DNA of 64,000 nucleotides from Ignavibacteriota bacterium (GCA_016707525.1 JADJHP010000003.1:76677-140676), one strand, 5' to 3'; positions 13,080 to 60,443 are shown, numbered from the stretch's first letter. Notes: a model not told the origin generated them from the sequence alone. Program-made: numbers and translations.

Positions 13080-14654
13080 TTACATGGAAAGGCTAAAACT
13101 GCCGGGTCCCCCGACCACGGTCAGCATCGGCTCGAACATCGCATTCGCTTCCTGGCACTCCACGACCACCTGCGCAAACCGCGTGAAGCGGCCGGCAGGG
13201 ACCTCGAAGGCGGCTTTCAGGATAGGCTTCCAGTCCTCGGATGACCCGCTGCCCAGGCCCACCATCGACTCGACCGTATGGGTGTCCGATGCACCGGCAA
13301 GCCGCTGCAGGATCGATTCCGCAAGTTTCTTTTCGCGATTGAGAAGGCGTTCCAGCGTCTTGATATCCGTCTTCCTGGTGGCCGCGGAGACGCGCGCCCG
13401 TTCGGAGTCGTGCCGCCCTCCCCGCGACGGCGATGTCTCTGCGGGAAGCATCCGCTGGACATGGGCATCGAGGACGAAGGCATGCACGCGCCACGTGCTG
13501 AGCGTGGAAAGCCCGACCAGGATCTCGAACAATGCATCGCGCCGGAGATCGACGCGGCGCAGAAGATCGTTCCGGCCGAACACCACGGTGCCCGGTTCAG
13601 CGGGAAGGACGAGTGACCGCAGCCGCAGCGTATTCACCAGGGATTCGTGAACGTTGCGGTGTCTGATGGATTCCTGCTTGCCCAGAAGCAACATGCCTGT
13701 CCTGCTCACACTTGCTTCCTGGTTCTTCAGCGTGCTGAGGAAGAACCTCATGCCGGCATGATCGAAGGCAAAGATCTCGCTGCCGCGCTCCACACCGTCG
13801 ACGCCGACGCCGAAGGCGTGCGGGGATGGCGTATCCTGCAGAGAGATCAACCCGGCCGCAAGAACGAAGGCGGTCTGCTCATCGAATGCAATGCGCACAC
13901 GCACTGACGGCGTATGCAGCGGCGATGGGGGATCGGGGACGTATGGCTCAGCCGGTGCGGGCGCAGGCGCAGGCTGATGCGGCGGAACGAACGGCGCCGG
14001 TGCTTCCACCGGAATTCGGGGCGCAGCAACCTGAGAAACCGCGGGCCGCTTCGGTTCGGGAACAGATGATGGTGGCACCGGTGGGGTGACCGGTACAGGC
14101 CGGGAGAGTTCAACCGGCGGATGCGGAACAGCTACAGGACGTGACGCCTCAACCGGTGGTTTCGGAACAGCGAGGGCGGAGGCCTCAACCGGCGGTTTCG
14201 GAAAGCGACGAGGACGTGACGCCTCAACCGGTGGTTTCGGAACGGCCACAGGCCGTACCTGTGGCGCCGCTGGATCGGAAGCCTCGATGCGCCGGGGTGT
14301 TGGAGCCACGACCGACGTGGGAGCGTCGGGGGTGACCTCCGGAACAGGCCGCGGAGCCGGCGGTGCAGAAGCAGGGACAGGAATTTCGGGAACCGGAAAA
14401 GGCTTCCGCAGCGGCTCCTCTTTCAGCGGGGGCGGAGGAGGTGTAGAAAACAGCGCGGGCTTCTGGTGGACCGGCGGAGGAGGCGGAGCGGCGCCTTCCG
14501 CGGCAAGTCGTTCCACTTCGCCGACCATCCTGCGGACGACCGCATCAGCTTCCTCTGCCGGCACCCCACCGAGGGATGTGCGGAGGGCAGAGCTCCTGGC
14601 AAGTGCTCCCAGGAGTTCACCGAGGAGTGCGGCACCCATGATGTCTTTCATCAC
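13080..14654 (-). CDS. Hypothetical proline-rich protein with tandem PKPPVEASRP-type repeats and a conserved C-terminal domain of unknown function
   Basis: A 524-aa ORF with a GTG/ATG start. The central section repeats PKPPVEASRPRRF / PKPPVEASALAV / PKPPVEASRPVAV / PHPPVELSRPVPV. The C-terminal 250 aa are non-repetitive. Confidence 0.5.
   Translation of the reverse strand: MMKDIMGAALLGELLGALARSSALRTSLGGVPAEEADAVVRRMVGEVERLAAEGAAPPPPPVHQKPALFSTPPPPPLKEEPLRKPFPVPEIPVPASAPPAPRPVPEVTPDAPTSVVAPTPRRIEASDPAAPQVRPVAVPKPPVEASRPRRFPKPPVEASALAVPKPPVEASRPVAVPHPPVELSRPVPVTPPVPPSSVPEPKRPAVSQVAAPRIPVEAPAPFVPPHQPAPAPAPAEPYVPDPPSPLHTPSVRVRIAFDEQTAFVLAAGLISLQDTPSPHAFGVGVDGVERGSEIFAFDHAGMRFFLSTLKNQEASVSRTGMLLLGKQESIRHRNVHESLVNTLRLRSLVLPAEPGTVVFGRNDLLRRVDLRRDALFEILVGLSTLSTWRVHAFVLDAHVQRMLPAETSPSRGGRHDSERARVSAATRKTDIKTLERLLNREKKLAESILQRLAGASDTHTVESMVGLGSGSSEDWKPILKAAFEVPAGRFTRFAQVVVECQEANAMFEPMLTVVGGPGSFSLSM
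14100..14290. repeat. Tandem ~36-39-nt coding repeats inside the proline-rich protein gene
   Basis: The unit cctcaaccgg(t/c)ggtttcggaa(c/a)ag recurs at least four times on the nucleotide level. Confidence 0.5.
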
Positions 14655-14807
14655 GCCCCTTCGTTCAGACCGGTGTATTTCATAGAACGCCTCTCAGACG
14701 AAGATACATATTGCGGGCGAAAACATCAAACTTGCGAGTGGTTTCAGGTTTTGGTACGTTAGTGAAACATTCCCTGACTCTTCTTCCTCCGAAAGAGCAT
14801 CTTACAA

Positions 14808-15431
14808 GTGACACAGCGATCTCCCCGGCTGTTGCCGGACGACGAGCTTATCGGGCTGGCCCGCGGGGGCGACGCGCGGGCATTCACGGAGCTCGTGAAG
14901 CGCTACGAGGACACGGTGTATCGGTTCTCGTACAAGATCTGCCGGGACAGCGAGGCGGCATCGGAGACCCTTCAGGACACGTTCATCAATGTGTACCGCA
15001 AATTGAACAGTTTTGACGGGAAATCCAAGTTCTCGACCTGGCTGTACACGATCGTGACCAATAATTGTCTGATGAAGCGCCGGAAGCGGAAGAGCGATCT
15101 GATGGAAGAGTCCCTCGAGGCCTACGATCATCCCCCCGGCCAGTCCGGCGGCACGCCACGGCAGAAACCGGTACACACACCGGAGACGCCGGCGGATGTC
15201 GTGATCGGGCGTGAACTCAAGACCTTGCTCGAAGATGCCATGGCAAAGCTTCCTGAAGAATATCGTGTGGTCTTCACCATGCGGGATGTCGAGGGGCGAT
15301 CCACGGAGGAAACCGCCGGGGTGCTCGGACTGTCGGTGGAAGCCACCAAGTCGCGCCTTCGCCGTGCACGGGCGTTCCTCCGCGACCAACTGCAGCCACA
15401 CCTGACGGCACATCCGGAGATCCTGACATGA
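14808..15431 (+). CDS. RNA polymerase ECF-type sigma factor (sigma-70 family, group 4)
   Basis: LIGLARGGDARAFTELVKRYEDTVYRF matches region 2, and a C-terminal region 4 HTH is present. Its stop overlaps the next start (ATGA). Confidence 0.85.
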   Translation: MTQRSPRLLPDDELIGLARGGDARAFTELVKRYEDTVYRFSYKICRDSEAASETLQDTFINVYRKLNSFDGKSKFSTWLYTIVTNNCLMKRRKRKSDLMEESLEAYDHPPGQSGGTPRQKPVHTPETPADVVIGRELKTLLEDAMAKLPEEYRVVFTMRDVEGRSTEETAGVLGLSVEATKSRLRRARAFLRDQLQPHLTAHPEILT

Positions 15432-15703
15432 AGTGCGGGGACGTGTATCTCCATATATGTGACCACCTCGACGAGGACATCAATTCCGAGCGTTGCCGCC
15501 AGATCAAGCAGCACCTTGCAGAATGCCCGAATTGCAGCGAATACCTGAGCTCGCTCAAGCAAACGATCACGTTGTACCGTGCCCTCCCCCCTCCGCGCAT
15601 TCCGGCAGGAGCGCATCGCGACCTGTTCAAGACGATCTCATCGCTTACGGCAGAAGCGGCACCGGGGGCATCAAAACGCGGACGGAAAGCGAAGCGGGCC
15701 TGA
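15428..15703 (+). CDS. Putative zinc-binding anti-sigma factor (ZAS-like: HxxxC...CxxC)
   Basis: MKCGDVYLHICDHLDEDINSERCRQIKQHLAECPNCSEYL, 91 aa, translationally coupled to the ECF sigma gene. Confidence 0.6.
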   Translation: MKCGDVYLHICDHLDEDINSERCRQIKQHLAECPNCSEYLSSLKQTITLYRALPPPRIPAGAHRDLFKTISSLTAEAAPGASKRGRKAKRA

Positions 15704-15778
15704 CCCTTCCGGCCCCCACCGTGCATCCTATGGACACAATTCGGGGGTCCCGTCCACACAGTACAGGAGTTTGATCGC

Positions 15779-15991
15779 ATGACAAAGAACGTAGGTCCGG
15801 CTGACCGGATCGTCCGCACCCTGCTCGCCATCGTCCTTGGCATTTTGATCTTCACCGGCGAAGTGACCGGCACGCTTGCTATCGTCCTCGGTGTCCTGGC
15901 TGTCGTTCTGCTCGCGACAAGCGCCGTGAGTTTCTGCCCGCTGTACACCATCGGGAAGATCTCCACCGCAAAGGACGGGGCGAAGAAGTAA
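15779..15991 (+). CDS. DUF2892 (YgaP-like) small membrane protein
   Basis: RIVRTLLAIVLGIL...SAVSFCPLYTIGKIST is the DUF2892 signature, with its conserved Cys in the FCPLY motif. Confidence 0.7.
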   Translation: MTKNVGPADRIVRTLLAIVLGILIFTGEVTGTLAIVLGVLAVVLLATSAVSFCPLYTIGKISTAKDGAKK

Positions 15992-16224
15992 TGGGTCCGT
16001 CGTCCGGGAGTCCGATCTCCGGTTCGATGCAGGTCGAGGAGTTGTTGGAACGATATCCGATGGCAACGGGACTTCTGCTACAGCACGGGGTCCCCTGTCT
16101 CGTGTGCGGTGAACCGGTGTGGGGCACGCTCGGCGAGGTTCTGGGAAGCCATGGCAAGAAGCCGGAGGAGGCCGCCGCGATCGTGCAGGAACTCAAGAAG
16201 GAGCTGGAGGTGAAACCCCTATGA
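15991..16224 (+). CDS. DUF1858 domain protein (disulfide oxidoreductase-like, CxxC)
   Basis: VEELLERYPMATGLLLQHGVPCLVCGEP. Its start overlaps the previous stop (TAATG). Confidence 0.65.
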   Translation: MGPSSGSPISGSMQVEELLERYPMATGLLLQHGVPCLVCGEPVWGTLGEVLGSHGKKPEEAAAIVQELKKELEVKPL

Positions 16225-16403
16225 TGCGTAGCATATGGTTCAAACGCGCGGCTGCGGTGCTGCTTGGCAGTGCCGGCGGCTTCGCGTACTATTATTTCAT
16301 CGGGTGTGCGAGCGGAACATGTCCGATAACGTCCAGCCCGTACATCAGCACGGGATACGGGGCGTTGATCGGCGTGATACTCACAACAGGACGGAAGTCA
16401 TGA
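16221..16403 (+). CDS. Small 60-aa membrane protein with a GCASGTCP cysteine motif
   Basis: MMRSIWFKRAAAVLLGSAGGFAYYYFIGCASGTCPITSSPYISTGYGALIGVILTTGRKS. GGAGG sits upstream, and its stop overlaps the next ATG (ATGA). Confidence 0.5.
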   Translation: MMRSIWFKRAAAVLLGSAGGFAYYYFIGCASGTCPITSSPYISTGYGALIGVILTTGRKS

Positions 16404-16789
16404 CGACCATCGGGGTGGTGCTCGGGATCTTCGCCTCGCTGCTGATCATACTGCAGCTCGTGATCGTGATCAATGCGAAGAAACGGAGAGGGCGCCGTAT
16501 CCTCGGCGTGGGTGGGCCACTCGGTGAGGCGGTCAATTCGGGCGACCGCGTTCTTGCCTATTTCTACTCTCCGACCTGCTCGGAGTGCAAGACCCAGACG
16601 CCGATCATCGACATCCTTCAGCGCGAATACCCCAATGTGTACAAGGTCGACGTTGCGGAGCATTTCGAAGCCGCGCGGGCATTCGGTGTGATGGCGACGC
16701 CGACGACCGTCCTCGTTGACCAGAGCAAGATCGTCGACGTCTTCGTCGGCACCCGCAGTGAAGCGGTCCTCCGGGAAGCACTGCTGTAA
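16400..16789 (+). CDS. Membrane-anchored thioredoxin-family protein (N-terminal TM helix, CxxC active site)
   Basis: N-terminal TM helix MTTIGVVLGIFASLLIILQLVIVI, then AYFYSPTCSECK (Trx-type CxxC) and a Trx fold (VMATPTTVLVD). Confidence 0.7.
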   Translation: MTTIGVVLGIFASLLIILQLVIVINAKKRRGRRILGVGGPLGEAVNSGDRVLAYFYSPTCSECKTQTPIIDILQREYPNVYKVDVAEHFEAARAFGVMATPTTVLVDQSKIVDVFVGTRSEAVLREALL

Positions 16790-16801
16790 CACTCTCCTGT
16801 C

Positions 16802-18320
16802 TCAGGTGGCGGAGCCGGACAACCGGCTCTTCCTCCATCCGAAGACGGCATACACCACGAGTCCGGCGGCAAGCCACGTACCGAAACGGATCCACGTGAT
16901 CTCCGGCAATCCCATCATCAGGTAGATGCAGCTCGCGATCCCGAGGATCGGGACCAGAGGCACCAGCGGCGTGCGGAAATGCACGTTTCCGGTGGGGGTC
17001 CTTGACGCGGAGCACGATCACACCGGCACACACGAGCATGAATGCGAACAGCGTCCCGATGTTCGTCAACTCAACGATCTCATTGATGTTCGCCACCGCG
17101 GAAACGACCGCAACCCCAACACCGGTCCAGAACGTCGTGATGTGCGGCGTCTTGTATTTCGGGTGCACGCGGGAGAAGTACGCCGGCAATAATCCATCGC
17201 GCGACATCGCAAAGAAAATGCGGGGCTGGCCGTACTGGAAGACCAGAAGGACCGCGGTCATGGAGACCACGGCGCCTACGGCAACGATCCCCGCGGAGAC
17301 ATCGGAGTGGACATACGCGAATGCCGCCGCCAGCGGGTCCGCGACGCCCAGGTGCTGCCACGGCACCATCCCGGTGAGCACGAGCGCCACCACGATATAG
17401 ATCACCGTACAGACCGCCAGTGATCCGATGATGCCGATCGGCAGATCGCGTTCCGGGTGTTTGCATTCCTCCGCGGCGGTCGAGATCGCATCGAACCCGA
17501 TGTAGGCGAAGAAGATGAGCGAGGCGCCGACCCACACGCCGGAGAACCCATTGGGCATGAACGGCGACCAGTTCTCGGGTTTCACGAATTGTGCGCCGGC
17601 ATAGACGAAGAACATCAGGATGACGAGCTTCACGATCACCATGACGTTGTTGACCCGTACGGACTCCTTGACGCCGATGATGAGCAGCCAGGTGATGACC
17701 GCCACGATGCCAACGGCAAGGGCATTGAAGATGATGGGGATGCCGAGGAAGGTGGGGTGTGCACGCCAGGCTTCGAGCGGCAGAAGGAGCGAAGCATCCA
17801 CCTGTCCACCCGCTTTCAGGGCCGCCTCGGCCGCCTGGGCAGCGGATCGATAGTCCACCGCCAGCCAGGCCGGGATGTGCCATCCGATCCCCTCGCAGAG
17901 CTGATGGAAGTAGGCGGCCCAGGCGATGGCGACCGCGACATTCCCTACCGCATATTCGATGATCAGGTCCCACCCGATGATCCACGCAACAAGCTCACCC
18001 AGCGTCGCATAGGAATACGTGTACGCGCTTCCCGAGATCGGCACGAGCGACGCGAATTCCGCGTAGCAGAGCCCGCAGAACGCGCACGCGACCGCCGTCA
18101 GTCCGAACGAGAGGACGATCGCCGGGCCGGCACCGGGGCGCATCGCATCACCCGCCACAGCGGTCCCGATGGTGGCGAAGATGCCTGATCCGATGATCGC
18201 GCCGATACCGAGCATGACGATGTCGAATGGCCCGAGCGCCCTCTTGAGCTGATGCTCGGGGTTCTCCGCCTCGCGCATGATCGCATCAAGGCTCTTCGTG
18301 CGGAACAATTGACGGAACAT
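16802..18320 (-). CDS. Amino acid permease (APC superfamily) with a +1 frameshift near 16985-16995; the ORF track reports it as 16605..18320 plus 16802..16984
   Basis: The N-terminal two-thirds are a clear APC permease. The expected C-terminus ...RKRAF-RTPLVPLVPILGIASCIYLM... is split between two frames at cgtgcatttccgcacg, which implies one extra T in a TTT run. Confidence 0.75.
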
Positions 18321-26812: not shown

Positions 26813-27601
26813 TCAGATCGTATCGAGCGCCCGGCGGAACGCCGCGGTCCACACACGGGTGCCACCCGGCGAAGGATCGCTCTCCAGCTGCCGGAGAAGT
26901 GCCGAACCCACGATCACGCCGTCGGTGTCGCGGGCAAAGGTCACCGCATCCTCAGGCCGCGAGATCCCGAATCCCACGAGCATCGGGTTGCGCGTGACAT
27001 GCGCACGCACCGCACGGACGTTGTCGAGCGCCGAACCGGCCACGGCCCCGCCGGTCACGCCGGTGGTGGACACGCAGTACACGAATCCCGACGACGCAGC
27101 ATCGATCGCACGCACGCGCGCCGGAGGCGTCGTGGGCGTCGCGAGCAAGATCCCGGCCAATCCCGCGGATGTCACCGCCGGCGCATACGAGCTCCACTCC
27201 TCCAGGGGCAGCTCGGGAAGGATCAGGCCGTCAACCCCGGCAGCAGCCGCATCGACGAAGAATCTGTCCACTCCATAGCGCATGATCGGATTGAGATATC
27301 CCATGAGCACCAGTGGGACACCGGACCGCTGCCTGATCCGTGCAACGAGTTGCAGGATCCACGGCAGGGTCACGCCGTTCGCGATCGCCGTGCCGGACGC
27401 CTTCTGGATGACCGGACCATCGGCGAGGGGGTCCGAGAACGGAACCCCGATCTCCACGATGTCCGCCCCGCCATCCTCAAGTGCGCACACGAGGTCTGCC
27501 GTTGCATCCAGTGTCGGATACCCGGCGGTGAGGAACATGGCAAGCGACCGCCTGCCCTTCGTTGCATTGCCGCTCAACCGTTCTTGGAGTTTCATCGTCA
27601 T
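26813..27601 (-). CDS. trpA: Tryptophan synthase alpha chain
   Basis: [47 protein letters not shown]. Confidence 0.9.
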
Positions 27602-28800
27602 AGGTTCGCGTATGTTGTCATATCCTTGTCACCCCGCCCCGACACGTTCACCAGGATGAGGGGTGAGCCGGTGGTGCGCGGCGCGAGCTTTTCCAGCCAT
27701 GCAAGAGCATGCGCAGACTCGAGCGCGGGGATGATCCCTTCGAGGCGGGAAAGCAGTTTCGCCGCGGCAAGGGCTTCCTGATCTGTCACGGCAACATACT
27801 CCACCCGCCCGGCATCCTTCAGCGCGCTGTGCTCGGGGCCGACGCCGGGATAGTCCAATCCCGCGGAGATCGAGTGGGCAAGTTGCACCTGTCCGTCATG
27901 GTCCTGCAGCAGATAGCTGAGGGAACCGTGCAGGACACCGGGAGCTCCCAGCGAGAGCGTCGCGGCATGCTGCCCGGACGTGAGGCCGTGCCCGGCAGCT
28001 TCGACGCCGATCATGCGTGCCCTCGTGCCCAGGAACGGCTCGAAGAGCCCGATGGCGTTGCTCCCTCCCCCGACGCACGCCAGCAGGATATCCGGATCGC
28101 GTCCTTCAGCGGCACGCACCTGCTGCATTGCCTCTTCACCGATCACGCTCTGGAAATCGCGAACGATGGCGGGGTACGGATGAGGGCCAACGACCGATCC
28201 GATGATATAGAATGTATCGCGGACGTTGGTCACCCAATCCCGGATCGCTTCGCTCGTCGCATCCTTGAGCGTGCGCGTCCCGGAATGGACCGGCACCACG
28301 CGCGCACCGAGCATTTCCATCCTGCGCACATTCAACTGCTGACGCTCGATGTCCTCGTCGCCCATGTACACATCGCAGGCAAGTCCCATCCGCGCGGCCA
28401 CCGTGGCCGTTGCCACCCCATGCTGCCCGGCACCCGTCTCGGCAATGATCCGCTTCTTCCCCGATCGTTTTGCCAGAAGGATCTGACCGATGGTGTTATT
28501 GATCTTGTGTGCCCCGGTATGGCAGAGATCCTCCCGCTTCAGGTAGATCTTCACCTTTCCGTAGTGTGCGGCAAGGCGGTCGGCGCGTGTGATCGGCGTG
28601 GGCCGCCCGGCAAAGGTCGTCAGGAGTTCGCGCAGCTCTGCCGTGAATGCCGGGTCCTTCCGCGCGTCCTGATACAACGCCTCGAGTTCGTCCAGCGCGG
28701 GAATGAGGGTCTCGGGCACATAGCGGCCACCGTACGCTCCGAAATAGCCCCGTGCATCGGGCATACCTCCGGGAGCAAGTGCAGCAGGAGCGTGTGTCAT
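27598..28800 (-). CDS. trpB: Tryptophan synthase beta chain
   Basis: [15 protein letters not shown] and PLP-binding HTGAHKINN. The start overlaps the DAHP synthase stop, and the stop overlaps the trpA start. Confidence 0.9.
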
Positions 28801-29828
28801 GTGGTGCTTCCTTCGTTCAGTGTTCTTCCAACCACCGGCGCGAGCCGGCGGATATCATCCATCAGCGCAGCAAAGCGGGATGGTTTCAAGGACTGTGCGC
28901 CATCCGAAAGTGCGGCAGCAGGATCCGGATGGACCTCGATCATCAGCCCATCCGCCCCCGCCGCGATCGCGGCCATGCTCATCGCCGGAACAGCTTCCCA
29001 GATCCCGACACCGTGACTCGGATCCACGATCACAGGCAGGTGGGTGAGCCGCTTGAGGACGGGGATCGCATTCAGATCCAGCGTGTTCCGTGTCGCCGTT
29101 TCGAACGTCCGGATCCCCCGCTCGCACAGGATGATCTGCAGGTTGCCGCGGCTCGCGATGTACTCTGCCGCCATCAGCAGTTCCTCGATCGTCGCGGCGA
29201 TGCCGCGTTTGAGCAGCACCGGTATGCGGAGTTCGCCGACGGCCTCCAGGAGACTGAAATTGCTCATGTTCCGTGCGCCGATCTGCAGCACGTCCGCCAC
29301 TTCCGCCACGGCGGGGAGGGTGCCCGTATCCTTCACTTCCGTCACGATCGCAAGCCCCGTCTTCTCGCGCGCCTCGCGGAGAAGGACCAATCCTTCTTCC
29401 TTCATGCCCTGAAAACTATACGGCGACGAACGTGGTTTGAATGCGCCGCCCCGCAAGAACTGTGCACCTGCCGACTTCACGTTTCGCGCAACGGTAACGA
29501 TCTGCTCCCGGCTCTCCACCGAGCAGGGCCCGGCCATCACCGCAAGTTCGGGCCCTCCAATGCTCGCTGTCCCGACCTTGATCACGCTGCTCTCCGGCCT
29601 CGCCTCACGACCGACGAGCTTGTACGGCTTGGAAACCGGTATCGCCCGTTCCACACCGGGCAGGATCGTGAACACATCCGCGGCGATCGCGCCGTGATTA
29701 CCGGTGATGCCGATGGCCGTCCGCTCCGCCCCGGGTATCTCGTGGGCCCGGAATCCGAGATCGCCGATCTTCAGCATCACTTCCCGGACCTGGTCCGGCG
29801 TCGCATCCTGTCGCATCAGGACGAGCAT
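28797..29828 (-). CDS. 3-deoxy-7-phosphoheptulonate (DAHP) synthase, class I-beta with an N-terminal regulatory domain, embedded in the trp operon
   Basis: N-terminal ACT/FL-like domain [21 protein letters not shown], followed by a KDO8P/DAHP synthase barrel ([30 protein letters not shown]). Confidence 0.85.
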
Positions 29829-29831
29829 CTG

Positions 29832-30476
29832 TCATCTCCCTTGTGCTTCACGTGAACGATCCCATGCCAACGCCTTGAGTGCCGCATGGACGAACGCCCT
29901 CACCTTCTCATGATCCTTGATACCCGGCGCCACTTCCACGCCGCTGCTCACGTCCACACCCATGGGACGTGCTTGTCTGATCGCTTCCGCAACATTCGCC
30001 GGCGAGAGTCCGCCGCCCAGGATCACGGGCCCATGCCCGGCAGCCGCCCGTGCGATGCTCCAATCGAACACCTGGCCGGTACCGCCATGCACACCGGCAA
30101 CGAAGGTGTCCAGCACGTGGGCATCCACGCGATATGTTCCCACGCTGGCCGGATCGAAATCGGGTCCCACACGGTGTGCCTTCAGGACGCGGACCGGCAG
30201 GCCTTCCGTCTCCGCCGGCGACTCCTCCCCATGCAATTGTACCGCCTTCACCCCGCTCCTCCGGATCGCATCGAGGATCGCGGCGCGTGGCGCATTGACG
30301 AACACGCCGACCGTCACGATATCATTCGGGATGGACCGGACGATGTCCGCAACGGCATCAGGGCTGATGCACCGCTTACTCGAAGGCACGAAAATGAAGC
30401 CCAGCATGTCGGCACCCGCATCGAGCGCGCACAGGGCATCGTCACGCCTGGTGATCCCGCAGATCTTCACCCTCAT
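29832..30476 (-). CDS. trpF: Phosphoribosylanthranilate isomerase
   Basis: MRVKICGITRRDDALCALDAGADMLGFIF. Confidence 0.85.
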   Translation of the reverse strand: MRVKICGITRRDDALCALDAGADMLGFIFVPSSKRCISPDAVADIVRSIPNDIVTVGVFVNAPRAAILDAIRRSGVKAVQLHGEESPAETEGLPVRVLKAHRVGPDFDPASVGTYRVDAHVLDTFVAGVHGGTGQVFDWSIARAAAGHGPVILGGGLSPANVAEAIRQARPMGVDVSSGVEVAPGIKDHEKVRAFVHAALKALAWDRSREAQGR

Positions 30477-31261
30477 GCGCGGACCCCGGCAAGCACGTCC
30501 CGGAGTGCCTCACCGGGATCGGGAGCCCGCATGAACCCTTCGCCGATCAGGAATGCATCGATGTTGTGGGACCGCAGCATGCGTATATCTGCAGCGGACT
30601 GGATACCTGACTCGCTCACGCAGACCACATCGGAACCGATCAGGCCGCGCAGTCGCACCGACGTCTGCATATCCGTCGCAAATGTCGCAAGGTCACGATT
30701 GTTGATCCCGACCACGGGGAATCTTCCGCCCTCCAGCGCACCCACTTCCTCTTCATTGTGCACTTCCACGAGGACGCCGAGGCCGAGTTCATCGGCAAGG
30801 GCTTTGAGCTCATTCAGCAGGATGCGGTCCAGGGCGGCGACGATGAGCAGGACCGCATCGGCCTGGTACGCTCGCGCTTCATGAAGTTGATAGGGGTCAA
30901 GGATGAAATCCTTGCGGAGGACAGGCACCGCATGTCCTGCACGAGCAAGCGCCATGTAGTCCAGATGGCCCTGGAAGAACGGAACATCCGTGAGCACGGA
31001 GAGCGCCGCGGCGCCCGCCGCTACATACGACCGTGCGATCGCCGGTACGTCCATATCAGCGCGGATGACGCCCCGGGAGGGCGATGCTGCCTTGATCTCC
31101 GCGATGACCGCGGGGGAACGTTGGCGCAGGGCAAGTTCGAATGGCCGGCGGGGCACGTGATAGCCGGGCATATCCATCAGTGCGGCAAGCGGGGCCCTCT
31201 GCTTACGGGCGTCCAGGTCCTCCTGTGTGCGCCGGAGGATCGCGTCGAGATAGGTGCTCAT
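30473..31261 (-). CDS. trpC: Indole-3-glycerol phosphate synthase
   Basis: AVIAEIKAASPSRGVI...GINNRDL. Confidence 0.9.
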   Translation of the reverse strand: MSTYLDAILRRTQEDLDARKQRAPLAALMDMPGYHVPRRPFELALRQRSPAVIAEIKAASPSRGVIRADMDVPAIARSYVAAGAAALSVLTDVPFFQGHLDYMALARAGHAVPVLRKDFILDPYQLHEARAYQADAVLLIVAALDRILLNELKALADELGLGVLVEVHNEEEVGALEGGRFPVVGINNRDLATFATDMQTSVRLRGLIGSDVVCVSESGIQSAADIRMLRSHNIDAFLIGEGFMRAPDPGEALRDVLAGVRA

Positions 31262-32271
31262 GCTCTGTTCGTGAACTCCACCAGTGCCTTGAGGGTTGCC
31301 AGCGCGCGGCCCGAGTCGATCGCTTCCGCCGCGAGGCGTGTCCCGGCCGTCAGGTCGGCGGCCTTGCCTGCCACAAAGATCCCCATCCCTGCGTTGGCGA
31401 GAACGATATCACGACCCGGAACCGGTTCGGCCTGGAGGATGCTGAGCGCAATACGGGCATTTGTTTCAGGATCCCCACCCTTCACGGCGTCGTGCGGCGC
31501 TGTCGCAAGCCCGAAATCGGAAGCTTCGACGATATACCTGCGCACAGGCCGATCCCCTCCCACCTCGTGGACCGACGTCGGCCGTGCGAGGCTCACTTCA
31601 TCCATCCCGTCATCGCTGTGGATCACGCACGCTTTGTCCGTGTCCAGCACGTGCAGCGCACCGGCGAGCCGCCGGGCCACATCATGATGATAGGTCCCGA
31701 GCACCTGGCGCCGCACGCTGGCAGGGTTGGTGATCGGACCGAGCATATTGAAGATGGTCCTGACGCCAAGCTCCTGACGCGCTTTCGCCGCGAACTTCAT
31801 CGCGGGATGGAACAACGGAGCGAACAGGAACCCGATCCCGACGGTATTCACGCACGCCTCCACGCGGTCCGGTGCCAGTTGTGTCTTCACGCCGAGCGCA
31901 GCGAGCACATCGGCGCTGCCGCTGCGGCTCGACACGGAGCGGTTGCCGTGCTTCGCAACGGTCACGCCCGCGCCGGCAGCCACGAGCGCGGCCACCGTGG
32001 AGATATTGAACGTATCGCGTCCATCCCCACCGGTACCGCACATATCGATGGCGTCGCCATCGTCGGTGGTGATCCGGACCGCATGGGCACGCATCGTTCG
32101 CGCGAACCCGACGACCTCGGATTCGCTCTCCCCTTTTGCGCGGAGTGCGATGAGCAATCCGGCGATCTGCGCATCCGTAGCGGTGCCGCTCATGATCCTC
32201 TCCAGGGCATCCGCTGCCTCGTCGATCGACAGGTCCTGCTTCTCCAGACACTTCTCGATATAGTGCTTCAT
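31258..32271 (-). CDS. trpD: Anthranilate phosphoribosyltransferase
   Basis: AQIAGLLIALRAKGES...CGTGGDG. Confidence 0.9.
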   Translation of the reverse strand: MKHYIEKCLEKQDLSIDEAADALERIMSGTATDAQIAGLLIALRAKGESESEVVGFARTMRAHAVRITTDDGDAIDMCGTGGDGRDTFNISTVAALVAAGAGVTVAKHGNRSVSSRSGSADVLAALGVKTQLAPDRVEACVNTVGIGFLFAPLFHPAMKFAAKARQELGVRTIFNMLGPITNPASVRRQVLGTYHHDVARRLAGALHVLDTDKACVIHSDDGMDEVSLARPTSVHEVGGDRPVRRYIVEASDFGLATAPHDAVKGGDPETNARIALSILQAEPVPGRDIVLANAGMGIFVAGKAADLTAGTRLAAEAIDSGRALATLKALVEFTNRA

Positions 32272-32837
32272 GACAGCCTCTCCACCCAGTTCCTGAGAAT
32301 TTGCATGCCCTCTGTGGTCAGGATCGATTCGGGGTGGAATTGCACGCCTTCCACCGGCAACGTCCTGTGACGCACGCCCATGATCACGCCATCCTCGGTC
32401 TCCGCGGTGATCTCCAGAGCATCAGGCAGCGAGGAACGCTCGACGACCAACGAATGGTAGCGCGTCGCATCGAAGGGATCCGACACGCCCCGGTACAGCG
32501 ACGTTCCGTGATGCCGCACGCGCGATGTCCGTCCGTGCATCAGCGACGGCGCGTGGATGACGGATCCGCCGAAGGCGGCGCCGATCGCCTGATGGCCGAG
32601 GCAGACGCCGAAGAGCGGGAACGAGGTACTACAGTGGCGGATGACGTCAAGGGTGACGCCGGCATCCTCCGGTCGGCCGGGGCCGGGGGACAACAGGATC
32701 CCGTCCGGCGCCAATGTTGTGATCTCGTCGACGGTCACGGCATCGTTGCGGCGCACCAAGAGATCGGTGCGGAAGGTGCCGAGTGCCTGCACGAGATTGA
32801 ACGTGAAGGAATCATAGTTGTCGATCACGAGGATCAT
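32268..32837 (-). CDS. trpG: Anthranilate synthase component II (glutamine amidotransferase)
   Basis: MILVIDNYDSFTFNLVQ...GVCLGHQAI, class I GATase. Confidence 0.85.
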   Translation of the reverse strand: MILVIDNYDSFTFNLVQALGTFRTDLLVRRNDAVTVDEITTLAPDGILLSPGPGRPEDAGVTLDVIRHCSTSFPLFGVCLGHQAIGAAFGGSVIHAPSLMHGRTSRVRHHGTSLYRGVSDPFDATRYHSLVVERSSLPDALEITAETEDGVIMGVRHRTLPVEGVQFHPESILTTEGMQILRNWVERLS

Positions 32838-34324
32838 TGTGCACCTTCCTCCTGCCCGTCGGGCGCGGCGAGCCCGCGTGAGGCGAGACGTATCGCCTCC
32901 ATGAGCACCCGCGCCTTGTTGACCGTTTCGTCGTATTCATTCGACGGCACGGAGTCGGCAACGATCCCCGCGCCCGCCTGCAGCTTCAACGTTTGTCCAT
33001 GCGCGAACACCGTGCGTATCGCGATACAGGTATCCATCGTGCCGTCCATGCCGAAATACCCCACGGCGCCTGCGTACGCTCCACGCGGAAAGGGTTCGAG
33101 GTCAGCGATGATCTCCATCGCACGCACCTTCGGGGCACCCGAGACCGTCCCTGCAGGGAAGCACGATTCAAAGATGCCCACCGCGTCGATGTCCGGACGG
33201 ATCCGGCCGCGCACTTCCGAAACGATGTGCATCACATGCGAATAGCGGTCCACGCGCTTGAAGACCGGCACTTCCACGGAACCGTACTCGGAGACCCGGC
33301 CAACGTCGTTGCGCCCGAGGTCCACAAGCATCACATGCTCGGCAAGTTCCTTGGGATCGGCGAGAAGGTCCAGTTCAAGACGTTTGTCGTCGGCTTCATC
33401 CACACCGCGGCGCCGGGTACCGGCGATCGGCAGAAGCTCCACTGTGCCGCCGTGTGCCTGGATGAGCATTTCCGGCGAAGAGCCGGCGAGTTTGGTAGCG
33501 CCGAAATCCAGGAAGAAAAGGTACGGGGATGGATTGATGATGCGCAGGGAACGATAGACGGCAAAGAGATCGCCGGTGAACGTACTGCGTGTCCTTCGTG
33601 AGAGCACCACCTGAAAGATATCGCCTTCGGTGATGTGTTCTTTCGCACGAAGCACGGCCTGCTCGAACCCCGCGCGGTCCGGTTCACCCGCTCCATCCAT
33701 CGCACAACTGAACGGCGTGGCCGGTGCGGTCACTCTCCGCAGGCGGAGTTCCAGCGCAGACAGGGCGGCCTTCCCCGATTCGTACTGGTCTTCCAGTGGC
33801 GCCGCCGGGTCGATGAAGACATTGTGCATGAGCGTCATGACCTGCCGGTGATGGTCGAACTGCACGACCGAGCCGAACAGGCCGAGGATCGCATCGGGCT
33901 CCTCACCCGCTGCGGGCGTGATAGGTATCCGTTCGATGTGCCTGACGCAGTTGTACCCGATGTATCCCACAAGTCCGCCAAGCAGCCCGTGGGGCTCCTG
34001 CACCGGTGCGATCCTGTGCGGTGCGAGGATACTGCGGATGACGGAGAACAGCGGGCCCTGCACCTCCTCCGTTCCCCTGGCATCGCGCACGGTCACCGAT
34101 CCGTTGCGGGCTTCGAGGATCACCCGCGGACGCGTGCCGATGAACGAAAAGCGTCCGATCTTTTCGTTCGGTTCGACGCTCTCCAGGATGAAGGACGGCA
34201 CCCCCTCTTCACGGAGCGTGAGGTAGGTCAGGACCGGGGTCAAGGTATCCGCCACCAGGGTCCGCACGAGCGGGATCACGGTGTACGAAGCTGCCAGTTG
34301 CCTGAATGTTGCGAACGGTATCAT
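32834..34324 (-). CDS. trpE: Anthranilate synthase component I
   Basis: ORF trimmed to MIPFATFRQLAASYTVIPLV, with the ATG at 34324 preceded by GGGAGG. Chorismate-binding domain present. Confidence 0.9.
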   Translation of the reverse strand: MIPFATFRQLAASYTVIPLVRTLVADTLTPVLTYLTLREEGVPSFILESVEPNEKIGRFSFIGTRPRVILEARNGSVTVRDARGTEEVQGPLFSVIRSILAPHRIAPVQEPHGLLGGLVGYIGYNCVRHIERIPITPAAGEEPDAILGLFGSVVQFDHHRQVMTLMHNVFIDPAAPLEDQYESGKAALSALELRLRRVTAPATPFSCAMDGAGEPDRAGFEQAVLRAKEHITEGDIFQVVLSRRTRSTFTGDLFAVYRSLRIINPSPYLFFLDFGATKLAGSSPEMLIQAHGGTVELLPIAGTRRRGVDEADDKRLELDLLADPKELAEHVMLVDLGRNDVGRVSEYGSVEVPVFKRVDRYSHVMHIVSEVRGRIRPDIDAVGIFESCFPAGTVSGAPKVRAMEIIADLEPFPRGAYAGAVGYFGMDGTMDTCIAIRTVFAHGQTLKLQAGAGIVADSVPSNEYDETVNKARVLMEAIRLASRGLAAPDGQEEGAQ

Positions 34325-34335
34325 GGACCTCCCAT

Positions 34336-34373
34336 AAAAACGAAAAAACCCTTCCTGGCTGTCAGGAAGGGTT
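34336..34373 (-). terminator. Intrinsic terminator / trp attenuator hairpin upstream of trpE
   Basis: On the minus strand: AACCCTTCCTG-acagc-CAGGAAGGGTT followed by TTTTTCGTTTTT. Confidence 0.75.
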
Positions 34374-34400
34374 GTGCATGGCACAACGATGGAAAAGACA

Positions 34401-56557: not shown

Positions 56558-56629
56558 TCCGCGATAGCTCAATGGTAGAGCATGCGGCTGTTAACCGCAG
56601 GGTTGCAGGTTCGAGTCCTGCTCGCGGAG
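56558..56629 (+). tRNA. tRNA-Asn (anticodon GTT)
   Basis: 72 nt. Acceptor stem TCCGCGA/TCGCGGA, D-arm AGCTCAATGGTAGAGC, anticodon loop CTGTTAA, T-arm GGTTCGAGTCC. CCA is not encoded. Confidence 0.85.
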
Positions 56630-56722: not shown

Positions 56723-59413
56723 CTACCGGAGAACCAAAAGCCTCCCGGGTCTCCGTGAAGTTGCCCCCTGCAGTCTATAGAAATAGACCCCGCTTGAAAA
56801 TCCTCCCGCATCGAATTGCACGCTATGATCCCCCGCATCCTGTTCTCCATCCTGCAGAACGGCGACCTGCTGGCCGAGAACGTTGAACACCGTGAGCTTC
56901 ACGCGCATGCGTGCAGGCAAGGCGAACCGGATGGTAGTTGTCGGATTGAAAGGATTGGGAAAGTTCTGCGCAAGCATGAATCCTCCAACAGGATCGGCAC
57001 GCCTCTCCCGGACGGCAGTAACCGACGACCCGGGACTTTTCAGCAGCGTTCCCGCATTGCCGGCGATGAGCTGGGTCTGCCCGTTCACAACCGCGATGGT
57101 ATGCAGATCCTGCGTCGTCCCGCTCACCATGTACCCCCACGTCGCTCCTCCATCGGTCGTCCTGAGGATCGTGCCCCGGGCTCCCGCCACCCAACCGGAA
57201 TCGCGGCCGGAGAATGCAACGGCATTCAGGGATGATCGCGTTGGGACCCCCTGTTGCAGGATCCAGACTTCGCCACCATTCGTTGTCCGGTAGATACGGC
57301 CGAAGTCCCCCACGAGGTATCCTGTCAGCGAGTCTGCGAATGTCATGCTCTGCATGGTGAGCGTATCGGTAAAGGTCCAGACCGTCCAGGTGGCACCGCT
57401 GTCCTGTGTCGCCGCCAGAGTGCCATGGTCCCCCATCGCCCATCCTCGCGATGGATCAGCGAAGTATACACCCCGGAGAGTCCTGGTGGTCGACAACGGT
57501 ACGAGCGTCCAATGTATGCCGCCATTCGTGGTCGTGTAGAGCACACCTCCCGTTCCCACAACCCATCCACGGGTGGCCGAGAGCATCTGGATCGCGCACA
57601 GGCGGCCACCCTCAGGCACGCTGACAAGCGACGGCTCCCAGGAAACACCGCCGTCTGATGTGCGGTTTATCGCCGCAGAGTCGATGACCCAGCAACGGAG
57701 TGGATCCACCGCACTCACTCCATATGACGGTTTGTTTGATTGAGAAGATACGGCCGCCCAGGTGAGTCCGGCATCCGTTGATCGAAGGAGCCCCGACTCT
57801 CCCGCCAGCCACCCTGACGCAGGGCTCGTGAAAGTGACCGCATTGATCGCCCCGGGCGTTGGTGAAGCAACACGCTCCCACGCAGGAGGGGCGGGCTTCA
57901 TGTTCACCGTGAATGTGATGCTGTCTCCCGGGAAACCGATCTCCGAGAGATCCAGATTCCCCATCAGCCCTGATGCGAGGATGCACGCCGGATTCGTCAT
58001 CCCGCTGATCGCCGTGCGTGCTGGCCTGCAGAATGCAGCGGAATCCAGCGTGCCGTTCAGTTGGAAACCAAGGTAGGGATTGCCGCCCGGTCGATAGGGA
58101 TACACTTCATCGGGAGGGCCATCCGCATTTCCGCGAAGGAGACTATCGATCCGGTATACCAGCAACCCTTCGCCCGGAAGAATGCTCTCAAAGATGGAAG
58201 TCCGCTTCCGATACTCAAGGATGAAGCACTCGCCTTCCACAGGAGAATCGATCCTGTAGCAGTTGTTCGAGGGTGAAGTCAAGGGCCGAAGAGAATAGCG
58301 CCCCGATGTTGTGATCCGCGGGATCGTGTCGATCCATCCCAGGTATTTGTACCGGAGCCATGCCCCGGTGTGTTGAGGGATCTCCCGGGTATCCGCCATG
58401 AGATCCCAACGACCGACTGGAACAACGTTATCCGATGTGGTGTACCGATACGTGTCAGGCGCACCAAGCGAATGTAACATTTCATGGACGAACACGGCAA
58501 CGGTGGCACGCGACTGCATCTGGACATTGAACAAGTTCACCTTCTTCGTCCCGATCATCGGGCCCATATCCCGCATCGACGACATATGAGGCCAGAGGAA
58601 GGTACCCCGTGCAACAGGATCACCCTGTATGATGAAGCACACGTTGTCGACATACCCGTCCCCATCGCCGTCGAGCACAAGGCCGTTGGGGATCTGGCCA
58701 GCGATAGCGCTGATCGCCCGGTCAGTGAGTTCCCGTTCGCGGATGTACCGTTGCGAGGGTGGATAGCCGATGGTGTCGCTTGCGCTGTACGGATAGTAGT
58801 ACGCGCGGGGCCGGACATCCAGATACGAGAGGACCGTGGATCCCGGCTGTGTCGGGAAGAACGATGTCATCACCTCAAGCCGGCCGAACGATATCTCCCG
58901 GATGTAGTTGTACACCGAGCTCACTCCAGGAGTGGCCTCATTGAATTTGGCGACATACTGCGCGAAGCTATCCCCGAATGCGTCATCATCACTGAAGCGT
59001 ACGAAGATGACCAGGTTGGACATCACGCCGGTCCTCGGCGTGGCCGCGTGCACTGGCGGTGCATACTCCGGCGTCAGGGCACGGATCGCCTCTTCCGCCT
59101 GGAGGGAAATGTTCGCGTGCGGAAGCAGCCCTGCGCCGGCGGGATCATCTCGGCCGGGGAGTTCGGCTGTCGGGACAAGCAACTCTCCCCTCCGCTCGGC
59201 GTACACGTAGAACCCACTCGTCCGGTCCTGGATGATGGTGAACCCGTTGCGGTCGTGGAGCCAGTTATGATACTCGTCGCCTGTCGCAAAGCATTGCAGC
59301 GTACTGCCGTCCGGTTGCCGGACGGTGACCGGAACATCGTGCAGGTACGCCGTGTGTGAGATGAACGGAAGGAGAAAGAGGCACGTGATAAGAATGGCAA
59401 TGCGCATGTGCAC
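56723..59413 (-). CDS. Secreted M6-like (immune inhibitor A-like) zinc metallopeptidase with BNR/sortilin-type repeats and a T9SS C-terminal sorting domain
   Basis: Signal peptide, then the zinc motif HEMLHSLGAPDTY. At least six SxDxGxTW-type repeats. C-terminal NFPNPFNPTTTIRF...VYFYRL, a type IX secretion CTD. Confidence 0.7.
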   Translation of the reverse strand: MHMRIAILITCLFLLPFISHTAYLHDVPVTVRQPDGSTLQCFATGDEYHNWLHDRNGFTIIQDRTSGFYVYAERRGELLVPTAELPGRDDPAGAGLLPHANISLQAEEAIRALTPEYAPPVHAATPRTGVMSNLVIFVRFSDDDAFGDSFAQYVAKFNEATPGVSSVYNYIREISFGRLEVMTSFFPTQPGSTVLSYLDVRPRAYYYPYSASDTIGYPPSQRYIRERELTDRAISAIAGQIPNGLVLDGDGDGYVDNVCFIIQGDPVARGTFLWPHMSSMRDMGPMIGTKKVNLFNVQMQSRATVAVFVHEMLHSLGAPDTYRYTTSDNVVPVGRWDLMADTREIPQHTGAWLRYKYLGWIDTIPRITTSGRYSLRPLTSPSNNCYRIDSPVEGECFILEYRKRTSIFESILPGEGLLVYRIDSLLRGNADGPPDEVYPYRPGGNPYLGFQLNGTLDSAAFCRPARTAISGMTNPACILASGLMGNLDLSEIGFPGDSITFTVNMKPAPPAWERVASPTPGAINAVTFTSPASGWLAGESGLLRSTDAGLTWAAVSSQSNKPSYGVSAVDPLRCWVIDSAAINRTSDGGVSWEPSLVSVPEGGRLCAIQMLSATRGWVVGTGGVLYTTTNGGIHWTLVPLSTTRTLRGVYFADPSRGWAMGDHGTLAATQDSGATWTVWTFTDTLTMQSMTFADSLTGYLVGDFGRIYRTTNGGEVWILQQGVPTRSSLNAVAFSGRDSGWVAGARGTILRTTDGGATWGYMVSGTTQDLHTIAVVNGQTQLIAGNAGTLLKSPGSSVTAVRERRADPVGGFMLAQNFPNPFNPTTTIRFALPARMRVKLTVFNVLGQQVAVLQDGEQDAGDHSVQFDAGGFSSGVYFYRLQGATSRRPGRLLVLR

Positions 59414-59856
59414 CCCCAGCGTGAAGCGGTCTGAAATCTGGAATCACGGGAGGAAAGGGATCAGGACGGGATTGATACGAATCCCCCACTCCGATCAATC
59501 AACATCATTAGGTGGGGGCATCTGCTCCTCTCTCCCTTTCCGGTGAGGTGTCGAATTGTCCGACATGGCATTGCTGATCGGTCAAGGGCCATATCGTTCC
59601 CCGGTGATGCCATTCAATAATACGGCTCGGCAGCGAGGTTGTCAAATCCGATGTGAACCACGAATGATCACCGCGAACGAACTTTCCGTCACTTCATGTC
59701 CCGTCTGGGAGTCGATGTTGCTCATCATACGATCCATTCATTCAGCAGAAGATATGTACCATCCGTGATAGGAGACCCCGCCTTGCCTGCCATCAAGCAG
59801 CTTGGGCGATGATCCAAGAAGAAGAGGTAGATGTGGACCCGGCTACCCAGCCTTTT

Positions 59857-60162: not shown

Positions 60163-60193
60163 AAGTTTGAGTTATGGTGTCTTTCGCGGAGCA

Positions 60194-60229
60194 AGGGGTC
60201 CCCTCAGACGGGACCCCTTTTTCTTTTTT
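60194..60229 (+). terminator. Strong orphan intrinsic terminator on the + strand
   Basis: AGGGGTCCC-ctcagac-GGGACCCCT followed by TTTTCTTTTTTG. No convincing + strand gene ends here. Confidence 0.65.
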
Positions 60230-60443
60230 GTCCAGTGTTGCAGGCTGAGTCCCGATGCCCTTCATCGGGACGAAATCCCTCCGTTCGTTAGCGGGATGCG
60301 AGTTGAGCCCCTCAATTTTGCACATAGTCTCCCCCGTTGCATTAGCAGGATCCTGCTCGCTGGCCCCCCCGATTGTACTGGAGTAAGTCCACATATTTAG
60401 TTAAATTTGTGGAGTCATCATCCACATATTTGGGGCCCGCATT

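Follow-up and report, generated by a model that had tools for sequence, protein, structure and literature searches.

An ECF sigma factor, a CHCC-type zinc anti-sigma factor and a predicted regulon of small cysteine proteins in an Ignavibacteriota bacterium

What is controlled, and in response to which signal, by a sigma factor of the extracytoplasmic function (ECF) type that is encoded together with a small zinc anti-sigma factor (ZAS) and followed by four small proteins with conserved cysteines? This question is raised by a six-gene locus at positions 14808-16789 on the plus strand of a DNA stretch of 64,000 nucleotides (nt) from an Ignavibacteriota bacterium (GCA_016707525.1, JADJHP010000003.1:76677-140676), which is given as one strand and called the window throughout. 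An initial annotation had proposed a thiol/disulfide-stress or sulfur-trafficking module under ECF control, and this proposal is supported by a promoter motif shared at two places of the locus, by a conserved gene order and by the class of the anti-sigma factor, named CHCC after its zinc ligands. We think it rather likely that the locus is a thiol-oxidative or reactive-sulfur stress regulon, similar in its working to SigR-RsrA, the system by which Streptomyces coelicolor and other actinomycetes respond to thiol-oxidative (disulfide) stress (ECF12; RshA-SigH in mycobacteria), and built independently in the Fibrobacteres-Chlorobi-Bacteroidetes (FCB) group.

By its domain content, the product of the first gene, a protein of 207 amino acids (aa), is an ECF (group IV) sigma-70 factor: it matches Sigma70_r2 (64.6 bits) and Sigma70_r4_2 (60.6 bits) and neither region 3 nor region 1 in Pfam, and it scores 106.4 bits with TIGR02937 (sigma70-ECF; cut-off 42.9). 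Its start codon agrees with the calls in other assemblies. None of the NCBIfam equivalog cut-offs is reached (the best is PRK11922 with 159 bits vs 204), and in a sequence search of the PDB the nearest solved relative is SigW with 94 bits, while region 4 of SigR reaches only 30 bits. The anti-sigma factor has zf-HC2 as its sole Pfam match (25.3 bits vs 22.2) and no hydrophobic segment in its 91 aa, as expected of a soluble, single-domain protein. Six residues (C3, C11, C23, H29, C33 and C36) are invariant across 16 orthologues, and H29, C33 and C36 form the equally invariant HxxxCxxC motif (H29-x3-C33-x2-C36). When aligned with S. coelicolor RsrA, C3, H29, C33 and C36 correspond to C11, H37, C41 and C44, and the spacing of 26 residues between C3 and H29 is the same as between C11 and H37 of RsrA. 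ZAS proteins of the CHCC type are defined by a cysteine 23-26 residues N-terminal to the histidine of HxxxCxxC (Rajasekar et al., PMC4960319) and it is this class, not the HHCC class, that senses disulfide stress (PMC4960319). Judged by these residues and by its soluble, single-domain build, the anti-sigma factor falls within the published sequence definition of the redox-sensing (RsrA-type) class, consistent with the redox-ZAS-like pattern described initially. The protein ends in a conserved, strongly basic tail (…SKRGRKAKRA, encoded by 15644-15703; RRTRKSKKG and RRRRTIKKR in relatives) that RsrA lacks; it might attach to the membrane or to a partner, or mark the protein for degradation.

The regions 5' of the sigma gene and 3' of the anti-sigma gene were compared in 22 related loci, and this resulted in a bipartite ECF-type motif, TGA[AC][CT]C-N15-17-GCATC, in its fuller form TGA[AC][CT]C(nTTT)-N15-16-GCATCnTA. 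A script scan of the window found three matches to the strict motif vs 0.9 expected, and two of these, P1 and P2, are at the locus (Table 1). At P1, GCATC ends 6 nt before the sigma start codon at 14808, which makes it a candidate for the ECF-type promoter that the initial annotation had suggested looking for at this place. At P2, the -35 element overlaps the stop codon TGA of the anti-sigma gene and the strict match ends 51 nt (the extended motif 48 nt) before the ATG of the YgaP-like gene. The third match (30532-30559, plus strand, TGAACC-N17-GCATC) is antisense within overlapping minus-strand genes (27598-34384) and was taken as chance.

Both positions of the motif are conserved in relatives. 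Of the 22 genome loci linked to a sigma gene, 19 have the motif ahead of the YgaP-like gene and at least 10 ahead of the sigma gene; in an alignment of 24 sigma genes, the end of GCATC is 6-7 nt ahead of the start codon in 16. A matrix built from 116 sites has conservation also at positions that the pattern leaves free (TTT after the -35 element at 72-85%, A three bases past GCATC at 92%). In loci with no sigma gene within 6 kb, the motif still precedes operons encoding zinc-ribbon proteins, an 84-aa cysteine protein, rhodanese/thioredoxin (Trx), DUF302 or DUF6132, and these motif-bearing operons away from the sigma gene probably constitute a dispersed regulon. A distance of 6-7 nt between GCATC and the start codon is what usually separates an ECF -10 element from the transcription start, and for this reason a leaderless sigma/anti-sigma mRNA is predicted. 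P1 thus suggests autoregulation of the sigma factor from a leaderless or nearly leaderless mRNA. Promoter function is predicted for both P1 and P2 from position and conservation of the motif, and on this basis the locus is best described as two transcription units of one promoter type, with possible read-through, rather than as the single operon-like string that had been assumed.

Open reading frame (ORF) calling and translation returned six head-to-tail ORFs on the plus strand, exactly where the packed genes had been described. Four of the junctions have overlapping stop and start codons (ATGA at 15428, TAATG at 15989-15993, ATGA at 16221 and ATGA at 16400): the ATGA, TAATG, ATGA series of the initial annotation is correct as far as it goes, but is one junction short and leaves out the only intergenic gap of the string, the 75 nt between anti-sigma and YgaP-like gene (15704-15778) that contain P2. 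The same six genes (207, 91, 70, 77, 60 and 129 aa) are called in three other assemblies of the same species, all wastewater metagenomes, and the anti-sigma factor is 100% identical to a protein (NCBI locus tag IPI01_06595) of a metagenome-assembled genome (MAG) labelled 'Ignavibacteriae bacterium'. All proteins except the DUF1858-like one pass curated Pfam thresholds (5/6). A terminator scan found no intrinsic terminator between the six genes; the lone terminator-like match, at 16540-16559 inside the thioredoxin gene, is within chance expectation. The sigma-70 promoter scan returned nothing meaningful inside the cluster, no Rfam element was matched in 14400-17000, and the repeat search identified short chance repeats only. 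Hidden Markov models (HMMs) of the cassette families found no further member in the window besides the six genes.

Table 1. Predicted promoters and genes of the sigma/anti-sigma locus (positions in the window)
Feature	Position	Strand	Remarks
P1, predicted ECF-type promoter	14775-14804	+	TGACTC-N16-GCATCTTA; strict match 14775-14801
ECF sigma	14808-15431	+	GTG start; 207 aa
Anti-sigma	15428-15703	+	91 aa; start overlaps sigma stop (ATGA)
P2, predicted ECF-type promoter	15701-15730	+	TGACCC-N16-GCATCCTA; strict match 15701-15727, in 75-nt gap
YgaP-like transmembrane protein (DUF2892)	15779-15991	+	70 aa; AGGAG ahead of ATG 15779
DUF1858-like	15991-16224	+	77 aa
DUF6132	16221-16403	+	60 aa
Thioredoxin	16400-16789	+	129 aa

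Is the association of these genes conserved? When an alignment of DUF6132 was scanned against one genome per GTDB species, the family was found in at least 554 genomes, nearly all from the FCB group (Bacteroidota, Ignavibacteriota, Chlorobi-type bacteria, Calditrichota, KSB1 and Fibrobacteres). Of the 81 loci that were selected by DUF6132 and analysed, 22 have an orthologous sigma/anti-sigma pair (phmmer, E-values from about 1e-36 to 1e-115, most below 1e-60) within the DUF6132 cluster or next to it. The typical order is sigma, anti-sigma, YgaP-like; then at least one out of 84-aa cysteine protein, TrxA, OsmC, DUF1858, zinc ribbon and a rhodanese with a transmembrane (TM) helix (TM-rhodanese); then DUF6132; then DUF302, a thioredoxin with a TM anchor (TM-Trx) or OsmC; and last TrxA. 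The closest relatives (L001, L004, L084-L086) have sigma, anti-sigma, YgaP-like, DUF6132 and TM-Trx, without a DUF1858 gene. The gene order recurs across Bacteroidota, Ignavibacteriota and their relatives. In a reverse test, 68 metagenome loci were chosen by the anti-sigma factor alone (with the five closest anti-sigma sequences), of which 57 had enough downstream sequence: the gene next to the anti-sigma gene is YgaP-like in 39 and TM-thioredoxin in three, and the ECF-type motif is present in 36 of the 57. DUF6132 was found in 11 of the 33 anti-sigma-selected loci with at least 1.5 kb of downstream sequence. From the counts of both sets the conserved core is therefore sigma/anti-sigma/YgaP-like, while DUF1858, DUF6132 and thioredoxin are, judged by their distribution, a variable accessory cassette. 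The observation that would have refuted the initial annotation, a neighbourhood conserved in no related genome, is thus not what was found.

The content of the cassette is almost all thiol/sulfur chemistry: Trx, TM-rhodanese, OsmC, DUF302, a CxxC zinc ribbon, a pyridine-nucleotide disulfide oxidoreductase and TauE (rhodaneses and thioredoxins among the neighbours were told apart by seed phmmer searches and by reading the sequences). A Chloroherpetonaceae genome provides a setting of sulfide detoxification: its YgaP-like and DUF6132 genes are clustered with those for a Lactamase_B-rhodanese fusion that resembles persulfide dioxygenase, for two YeeE-type sulfur transporters and for peroxiredoxin, Trx, rhodanese and OsmC.

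Variations of the arrangement were seen too. A second ZAS-like gene without a sigma gene of its own follows the YgaP-like gene (sigma, ZAS, YgaP-like, ZAS) in many of the loci chosen by the anti-sigma factor (L109, L119, L123, L132, L136, L137, L139, L140, L144, L145 and L073); the copy of L073, the one that was read, has no equivalents of C11 and C23. A family of about 84 aa, which has three conserved cysteines (…HC…C..F..EC.S…) and no match in Pfam, is present in 16 genome loci (for example L013 4410-4652, L022 1736-1990 and L012 2762-2995) and missing from the window. Its gene often comes directly after the YgaP-like or before the DUF1858 gene, and several of these loci have the ECF motif ahead of it. 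In L048, L061, L063, L067, L071 and L075 (Paludibacter-type and some other genomes), DUF6132 directly follows a regulator of the ArsR family and is not near an ECF pair; in the regulator of L067, the one that was read, there is a CVC motif. One and the same effector thus seems to be connected to another sensor in these genomes.

The motifs quoted for the small proteins (HxxxCxxC of the anti-sigma factor with H29, C33 and C36, then FCPLY, CLVCGEP, GCASGTCP and CSEC) are all present, and hydropathy and charge analysis together with an AlphaFold hairpin model confirm the membrane anchoring of three products. The initial annotation had left the family assignments to HMM searches: DUF2892 and thioredoxin are above their Pfam thresholds, whereas the DUF1858 protein alone is not and depends on its homologues. 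The YgaP-like protein (PF11127, 68.7 bits vs 25.3) consists of two TM helices, and the sequence F-C-P-x-Y directly after TM2 is conserved in an alignment of 30 homologues. In E. coli YgaP, TMH2 has C159 at its cytoplasmic C-terminal end, and the rhodanese domain to which the TM part is fused is cytosolic (PMC4730233); by analogy, the cysteine of FCPLY is expected at the cytoplasmic end of TM2. A PDB sequence search with the single protein returned noise only. From motif and gene order, the YgaP-like protein is the most conserved predicted target of the sigma factor.

The DUF1858-like protein is soluble, with 77 aa and a CxxC (CLVCGEPVWGTL), and on its own sub-threshold (PF08984 19.2 bits vs 32.2; TIGR03980 23.5 vs 44.95). 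Of its 17 homologues, 16 match PF08984 with E<=0.01 (best 6.8e-9), and a profile of the homologues matches the DUF1858 structure 2K53 of the PDB over its full length (E=3.5e-5); a PDB sequence search with the single protein yielded noise only. It is probably a divergent DUF1858 subfamily with the motif CxxCGEPxWGTL, supported through its homologues.

The 60-aa protein with GCASGTCP had been called essentially uncharacterised: it does have a Pfam family, DUF6132 (PF19628, 36.4 bits vs 23.2), but full-text literature searches identified no paper on it. PF19628 is carried by 172 word-index matches; clustering of the family at 50% identity gives about 1,420 clusters, and nearly all are free-standing proteins 57-100 aa long. 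Across 31 sequences, with identities down to 57%, the invariant residues are G16, G20, A22, Y23, Y24, G28, C29, G32, C34, S38, P40, Y46 and G47. The loop G-C-x-S-G-x-C-P is between two helices, modelled by AlphaFold as a hairpin of helices 3-26 and 40-56 (pLDDT 74). The tails carry on average 2.7 and 2.9 lysines plus arginines and the loop none; with basic tails and an uncharged cysteine loop, the protein is therefore predicted to be N-in/C-in, with both ends in the cytoplasm. In other genomes, the commonest gene directly upstream of DUF6132 is a TM-anchored, N-out rhodanese (20 loci; TrxA in 8), and the commonest downstream genes are DUF302 (15 loci), DUF1858 (8) and TM-Trx (8). There is also one natural DUF6132-rhodanese fusion (P0248, 174 aa; DUF6132 at 8-54, rhodanese at 81-169), which is a Rosetta-stone link and mirrors E. 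coli YgaP with its rhodanese and DUF2892 TM domain.

The last protein matches thioredoxin (PF00085, 49.3 bits vs 23.5) and has CSEC at the expected position of the active site. It is not a classical TrxA: the active site is SPTCSECK instead of WCGPC, the score with TIGR01068 is 51.4 bits vs 96.8, and there is an N-terminal TM anchor. An N-terminus of only 2-5 residues is followed by one TM helix and then a strongly basic stretch; in nine orthologues the mean number of lysines plus arginines rises from 0.2 ahead of the helix to 5.0 in the 15 residues that follow. From this asymmetry the thioredoxin domain is predicted to be cytoplasmic (N-out/C-in). A TM-thioredoxin gene follows DUF6132 directly, with overlapping codons, in 8 genome loci.

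How might such a system work? At rest, the soluble 91-aa anti-sigma factor would hold zinc by C3, H29, C33 and C36 and sequester the sigma factor. Oxidants, persulfides/polysulfides or thiol-reactive electrophiles would, by analogy with RsrA, oxidise C3 with C33 or C36, whereupon zinc would be lost and the sigma factor freed. RNA polymerase with this sigma factor would, as position and conservation of the motif suggest, start at P1 and P2. Transcription from P1 would cause positive autoregulation by a leaderless mRNA and provide the cell with new anti-sigma factor, while P2 would serve the translationally coupled genes for YgaP-like protein, DUF1858 CxxC protein, DUF6132 and membrane-tethered thioredoxin. 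Topology and partners suggest that these effectors could form a station on the cytoplasmic side of the inner membrane where thiols and persulfides are handled: the cytoplasm would be faced by the tethered thioredoxin domain as well as by the cysteine at the end of TM2 of the YgaP-like protein, with DUF6132 as a hairpin partner. Once reduced thiols are restored, the anti-sigma factor would be re-reduced and the system switched off. The signal could be peroxide/disulfide stress or sulfane sulfur; the associations with rhodanese, DUF302, TauE and YeeE make us lean towards reactive sulfur species. In an excerpt of PMC9774250, E. coli ygaP is described as sitting with the sulfide-responsive regulator YgaV. 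A bolder version, to which we give only a small chance, is that the sigma/anti-sigma/YgaP-like triad is an FCB-wide master regulator of the response to reactive sulfur and disulfides, and that DUF6132 with an N-out tethered thioredoxin or rhodanese is a minimal membrane machine, a two-helix analogue of YgaP/DsbD that moves sulfane sulfur or reducing equivalents between the cytoplasm-facing domain and the outer face.

Several points weigh against a thiol- or sulfur-responsive regulon of the SigR-RsrA kind. The CHCC motif is required for redox sensing, but its sufficiency is unproven. The anti-sigma factor scores 31.3 bits with TIGR03988 (antisig_RsrA), half of the cut-off of 62.5, and the sigma factor is nearer to the SigW/RpoE type than to SigR; the likeness to SigR-RsrA is therefore one of function and not of orthology, and orthology with SigR/ECF12 is ruled out by the TIGR03988 score together with the scores of SigR region 4 and SigW given above. 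Promoter function, co-transcription and inducing signal are all deduced from sequence, and leaderless translation from GTG or TTG start codons would be unusual. The neighbourhood statistics are from loci chosen by DUF6132 or by the anti-sigma factor, mostly on MAG or metagenome contigs, and the window itself is without the rhodanese, OsmC and classical Trx genes that display the theme of the regulon elsewhere. Finally, topology prediction puts the cysteine pair of DUF6132 on the outer side, across the membrane from the thioredoxin domain in the cytoplasm, and direct thiol exchange between the two is therefore not obviously possible.

The same topology can be taken as an argument for something else, namely a transmembrane relay of reducing power, in which a minimal analogue of DsbD/CcdA passes electrons from the tethered thioredoxin via the DUF6132 cysteine pair to periplasmic targets during oxidative stress of the envelope. 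In favour of it are the thioredoxin domain predicted in the cytoplasm, the extremely conserved cysteine loop of DUF6132 predicted towards the outer face, and the codon overlap of DUF6132 and TM-Trx in the 8 genome loci; moreover, DUF6132 adjoins CcdA/DsbD_TM genes in three loci and is found among periplasmic TlpA-like redoxins in others. However, a hairpin of 60 aa shows no obvious channel, the relays that are known employ two re-entrant half-helices with one cysteine each, the confidence of the AlphaFold model is only moderate, and adjacency to CcdA can be argued equally well as cooperation or as substitution. Rhodanese as the most frequent partner of DUF6132 (20 loci and the one fusion) points to sulfur rather than to electron transfer, and we regard a relay as quite improbable. 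Detoxification of thiophilic metals, metalloids or cyanide is unlikely too: here the cysteine proteins would bind or move Hg, As, Cd, Te or Se species or thiocyanate, with the anti-sigma factor sensing the toxicant by its Cys/His cluster. Small proteins with two TM helices and a cysteine pair, such as MerF and MerE, transport Hg(II), SAM methyltransferases, one of them TehB-like, recur in the cassette, DUF6132 directly follows the ArsR-family regulator in Paludibacter-type genomes (with CVC in the one read), and export of thiocyanate after cyanide detoxification has been proposed for the TM domain of YgaP (PMC4730233). Yet there is no metal efflux pump, MerA, ArsC or ArsB among the labelled recurrent neighbour families, the main partners are Trx, rhodanese, OsmC and peroxiredoxin, and the link to ArsR is ambiguous, as this family also includes the persulfide sensors BigR/SqrR/YgaV.

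The anti-sigma factor might also not be a redox sensor and respond to another signal, for example by regulated proteolysis via its basic C-terminal tail or with the YgaP-like protein as co-sensor, its cysteine-rich targets being only loosely related to that signal. RsiW and ChrR carry the zinc motif and sense other stresses (PMC4960319), the sigma factor is closest to SigW and the anti-sigma factor aligns weakly to the ZAS domain of RsiW, the tail is conserved, and the invariant third gene is at a position sometimes held by regulatory partners. But these non-redox ZAS proteins are HHCC with an extra sensor or TM domain, while ours is CHCC, soluble and single-domain, the ECF-type promoter motif of its own marks the YgaP-like gene as a target, and the targets are overwhelmingly thiol-redox proteins; a signal unrelated to redox is therefore also improbable in our view. 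That the six genes are neighbours by chance, or unrelated small ORFs without functional unity, has next to no probability: high-GC DNA is expected to contain many spurious ORFs and the DUF1858 match is sub-threshold, but the Pfam matches of the other five proteins and the identical calls in three further assemblies argue for real genes, and conservation across phyla extends to order, overlaps and promoter motif.

A thiol-oxidative or reactive-sulfur stress regulon is thus the reading we prefer, and its relation to known systems can be defined. Shared with SigR-RsrA are an ECF sigma factor paired with a soluble, single-domain CHCC zinc anti-sigma factor of about 90-105 aa, the four aligning zinc ligands with their Cys-to-His spacing of 26, an autoregulatory sigma promoter (here predicted) and the dominance of thioredoxin-type proteins among the target genes. 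The pairs are not orthologous (TIGR03988 31 vs 62.5 bits; sigma nearer SigW/RpoE) and differ in the promoter motif (TGACCC-N16-GCATC here, GGAAT-N18-GTT for SigR), in the hosts, which are FCB-group bacteria without mycothiol, in the two additional invariant cysteines (C11 and C23) and the basic tail of the anti-sigma factor, in the YgaP-like membrane protein as core target and in the sigma mRNA, which is predicted to be leaderless here. With E. coli YgaP the locus has in common the PF11127 two-helix hairpin with a cysteine at the cytoplasmic end of TM2, and with ygaVP the association with rhodanese and a thiol/sulfide-responsive regulator (YgaV, of the SqrR/BigR type). In contrast to E. coli, the TM domain here is a stand-alone protein of 70 aa with no fused rhodanese, control is by the ECF/ZAS pair and not by an ArsR-family repressor, and DUF6132 is a second, unrelated cysteine hairpin that takes the rhodanese partner elsewhere.

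Bacillus subtilis SigW-RsiW provides the closest solved sigma factor (94 bits) and a ZAS domain to which the anti-sigma factor aligns weakly; RsiW, however, is a membrane-spanning HHCC protein that is proteolysed on envelope stress, while the anti-sigma factor here is soluble and CHCC, and the -35 elements are similar in type whereas the -10 elements differ (CGTA for SigW). DsbD/CcdA resembles the locus in having cysteines in a small membrane element near a cytoplasm-facing thioredoxin, and CcdA genes are sometimes adjacent, but there is no sequence relationship: DsbD/CcdA are proteins of 6-8 TM helices, with two re-entrant helices that carry one cysteine apiece, while the 60 aa of DUF6132 make up a hairpin with a CxxxxC loop. 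EcfO-Reo of Bacteroides is likewise an ECF system of Bacteroidota, and EcfO has reportedly been linked to oxidative stress. In an excerpt of one paper, the Dma dual anti-sigmas, discussed together with Reo, are said to span membranes (PMC10927553). As far as that excerpt goes, EcfO/Reo was set aside as a relative: Dma-type anti-sigmas are membrane-spanning, the anti-sigma factor here is a small soluble zinc protein, and the targets are different.

The surroundings of the locus in the window show some peculiarities of their own. It is flanked by a divergent gene upstream and a convergent gene downstream. The divergent gene (13080-14654, minus strand) encodes a GvpL/GvpF-like domain (37 bits), ahead of which comes a long stretch rich in proline that contains about four copies of a 39-nt repeat (14094-14252, PKPPVEASRP-type); other assemblies call only its C-terminal part of 274 aa. 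The convergent gene, for an amino-acid permease, is split into 16605-18320 and 16802-16984 (both minus strand) by a frameshift near 16985: the true C-terminus (…FRTPLVPLVPILGI…SGSAT) is in the other frame with its stop codon at 16802, while the out-of-frame ORF extends to 16605 and creates a false overlap with the thioredoxin gene. Two other assemblies of this species have an intact permease gene for 505 aa; the frameshift is probably an indel of assembly or sequencing, or else a strain-specific pseudogene. Further on in the window, a single tRNA gene (56558-56629, plus strand) precedes a stretch of lower G+C content at 58000-62000 (0.52-0.57 vs about 0.62 elsewhere) that could be an insertion next to the tRNA.

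Circuits of ZAS and ECF factors that sense disulfides are, to our knowledge, understood in detail only in Actinobacteria. No paper that links DUF2892 with ECF/ZAS pairs came up in full-text literature searches, nor did any on this system via DUF2892 with DUF302 or DUF302 with rhodanese. As read from its sequence, the locus would be an RsrA-type switch outside Actinobacteria, with a promoter specificity of its own, a probably leaderless sigma gene and a regulon of mostly uncharacterised cysteine proteins; its regulatory logic is the expected one, and what is new are the membrane effectors and the breadth of distribution. It suggests that Bacteroidota, Ignavibacteriota, Chlorobi-type bacteria and their relatives have a widespread counterpart that is unstudied, with three handles for testing: the predicted promoter motif, the probably leaderless and autoregulated sigma gene and the defined regulon. 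This regulon consists mostly of families without established function (the stand-alone YgaP-like TM protein, DUF6132, DUF302, DUF1858 and the unnamed 84-aa protein with three cysteines). Their partners are rhodaneses and thioredoxins tethered at the cytoplasmic face of the membrane, and this offers a hypothesis for several of these DUFs: they may handle persulfide or thiol damage at the membrane, in organisms that live at oxic/sulfidic interfaces such as wastewater, sediments and fens.

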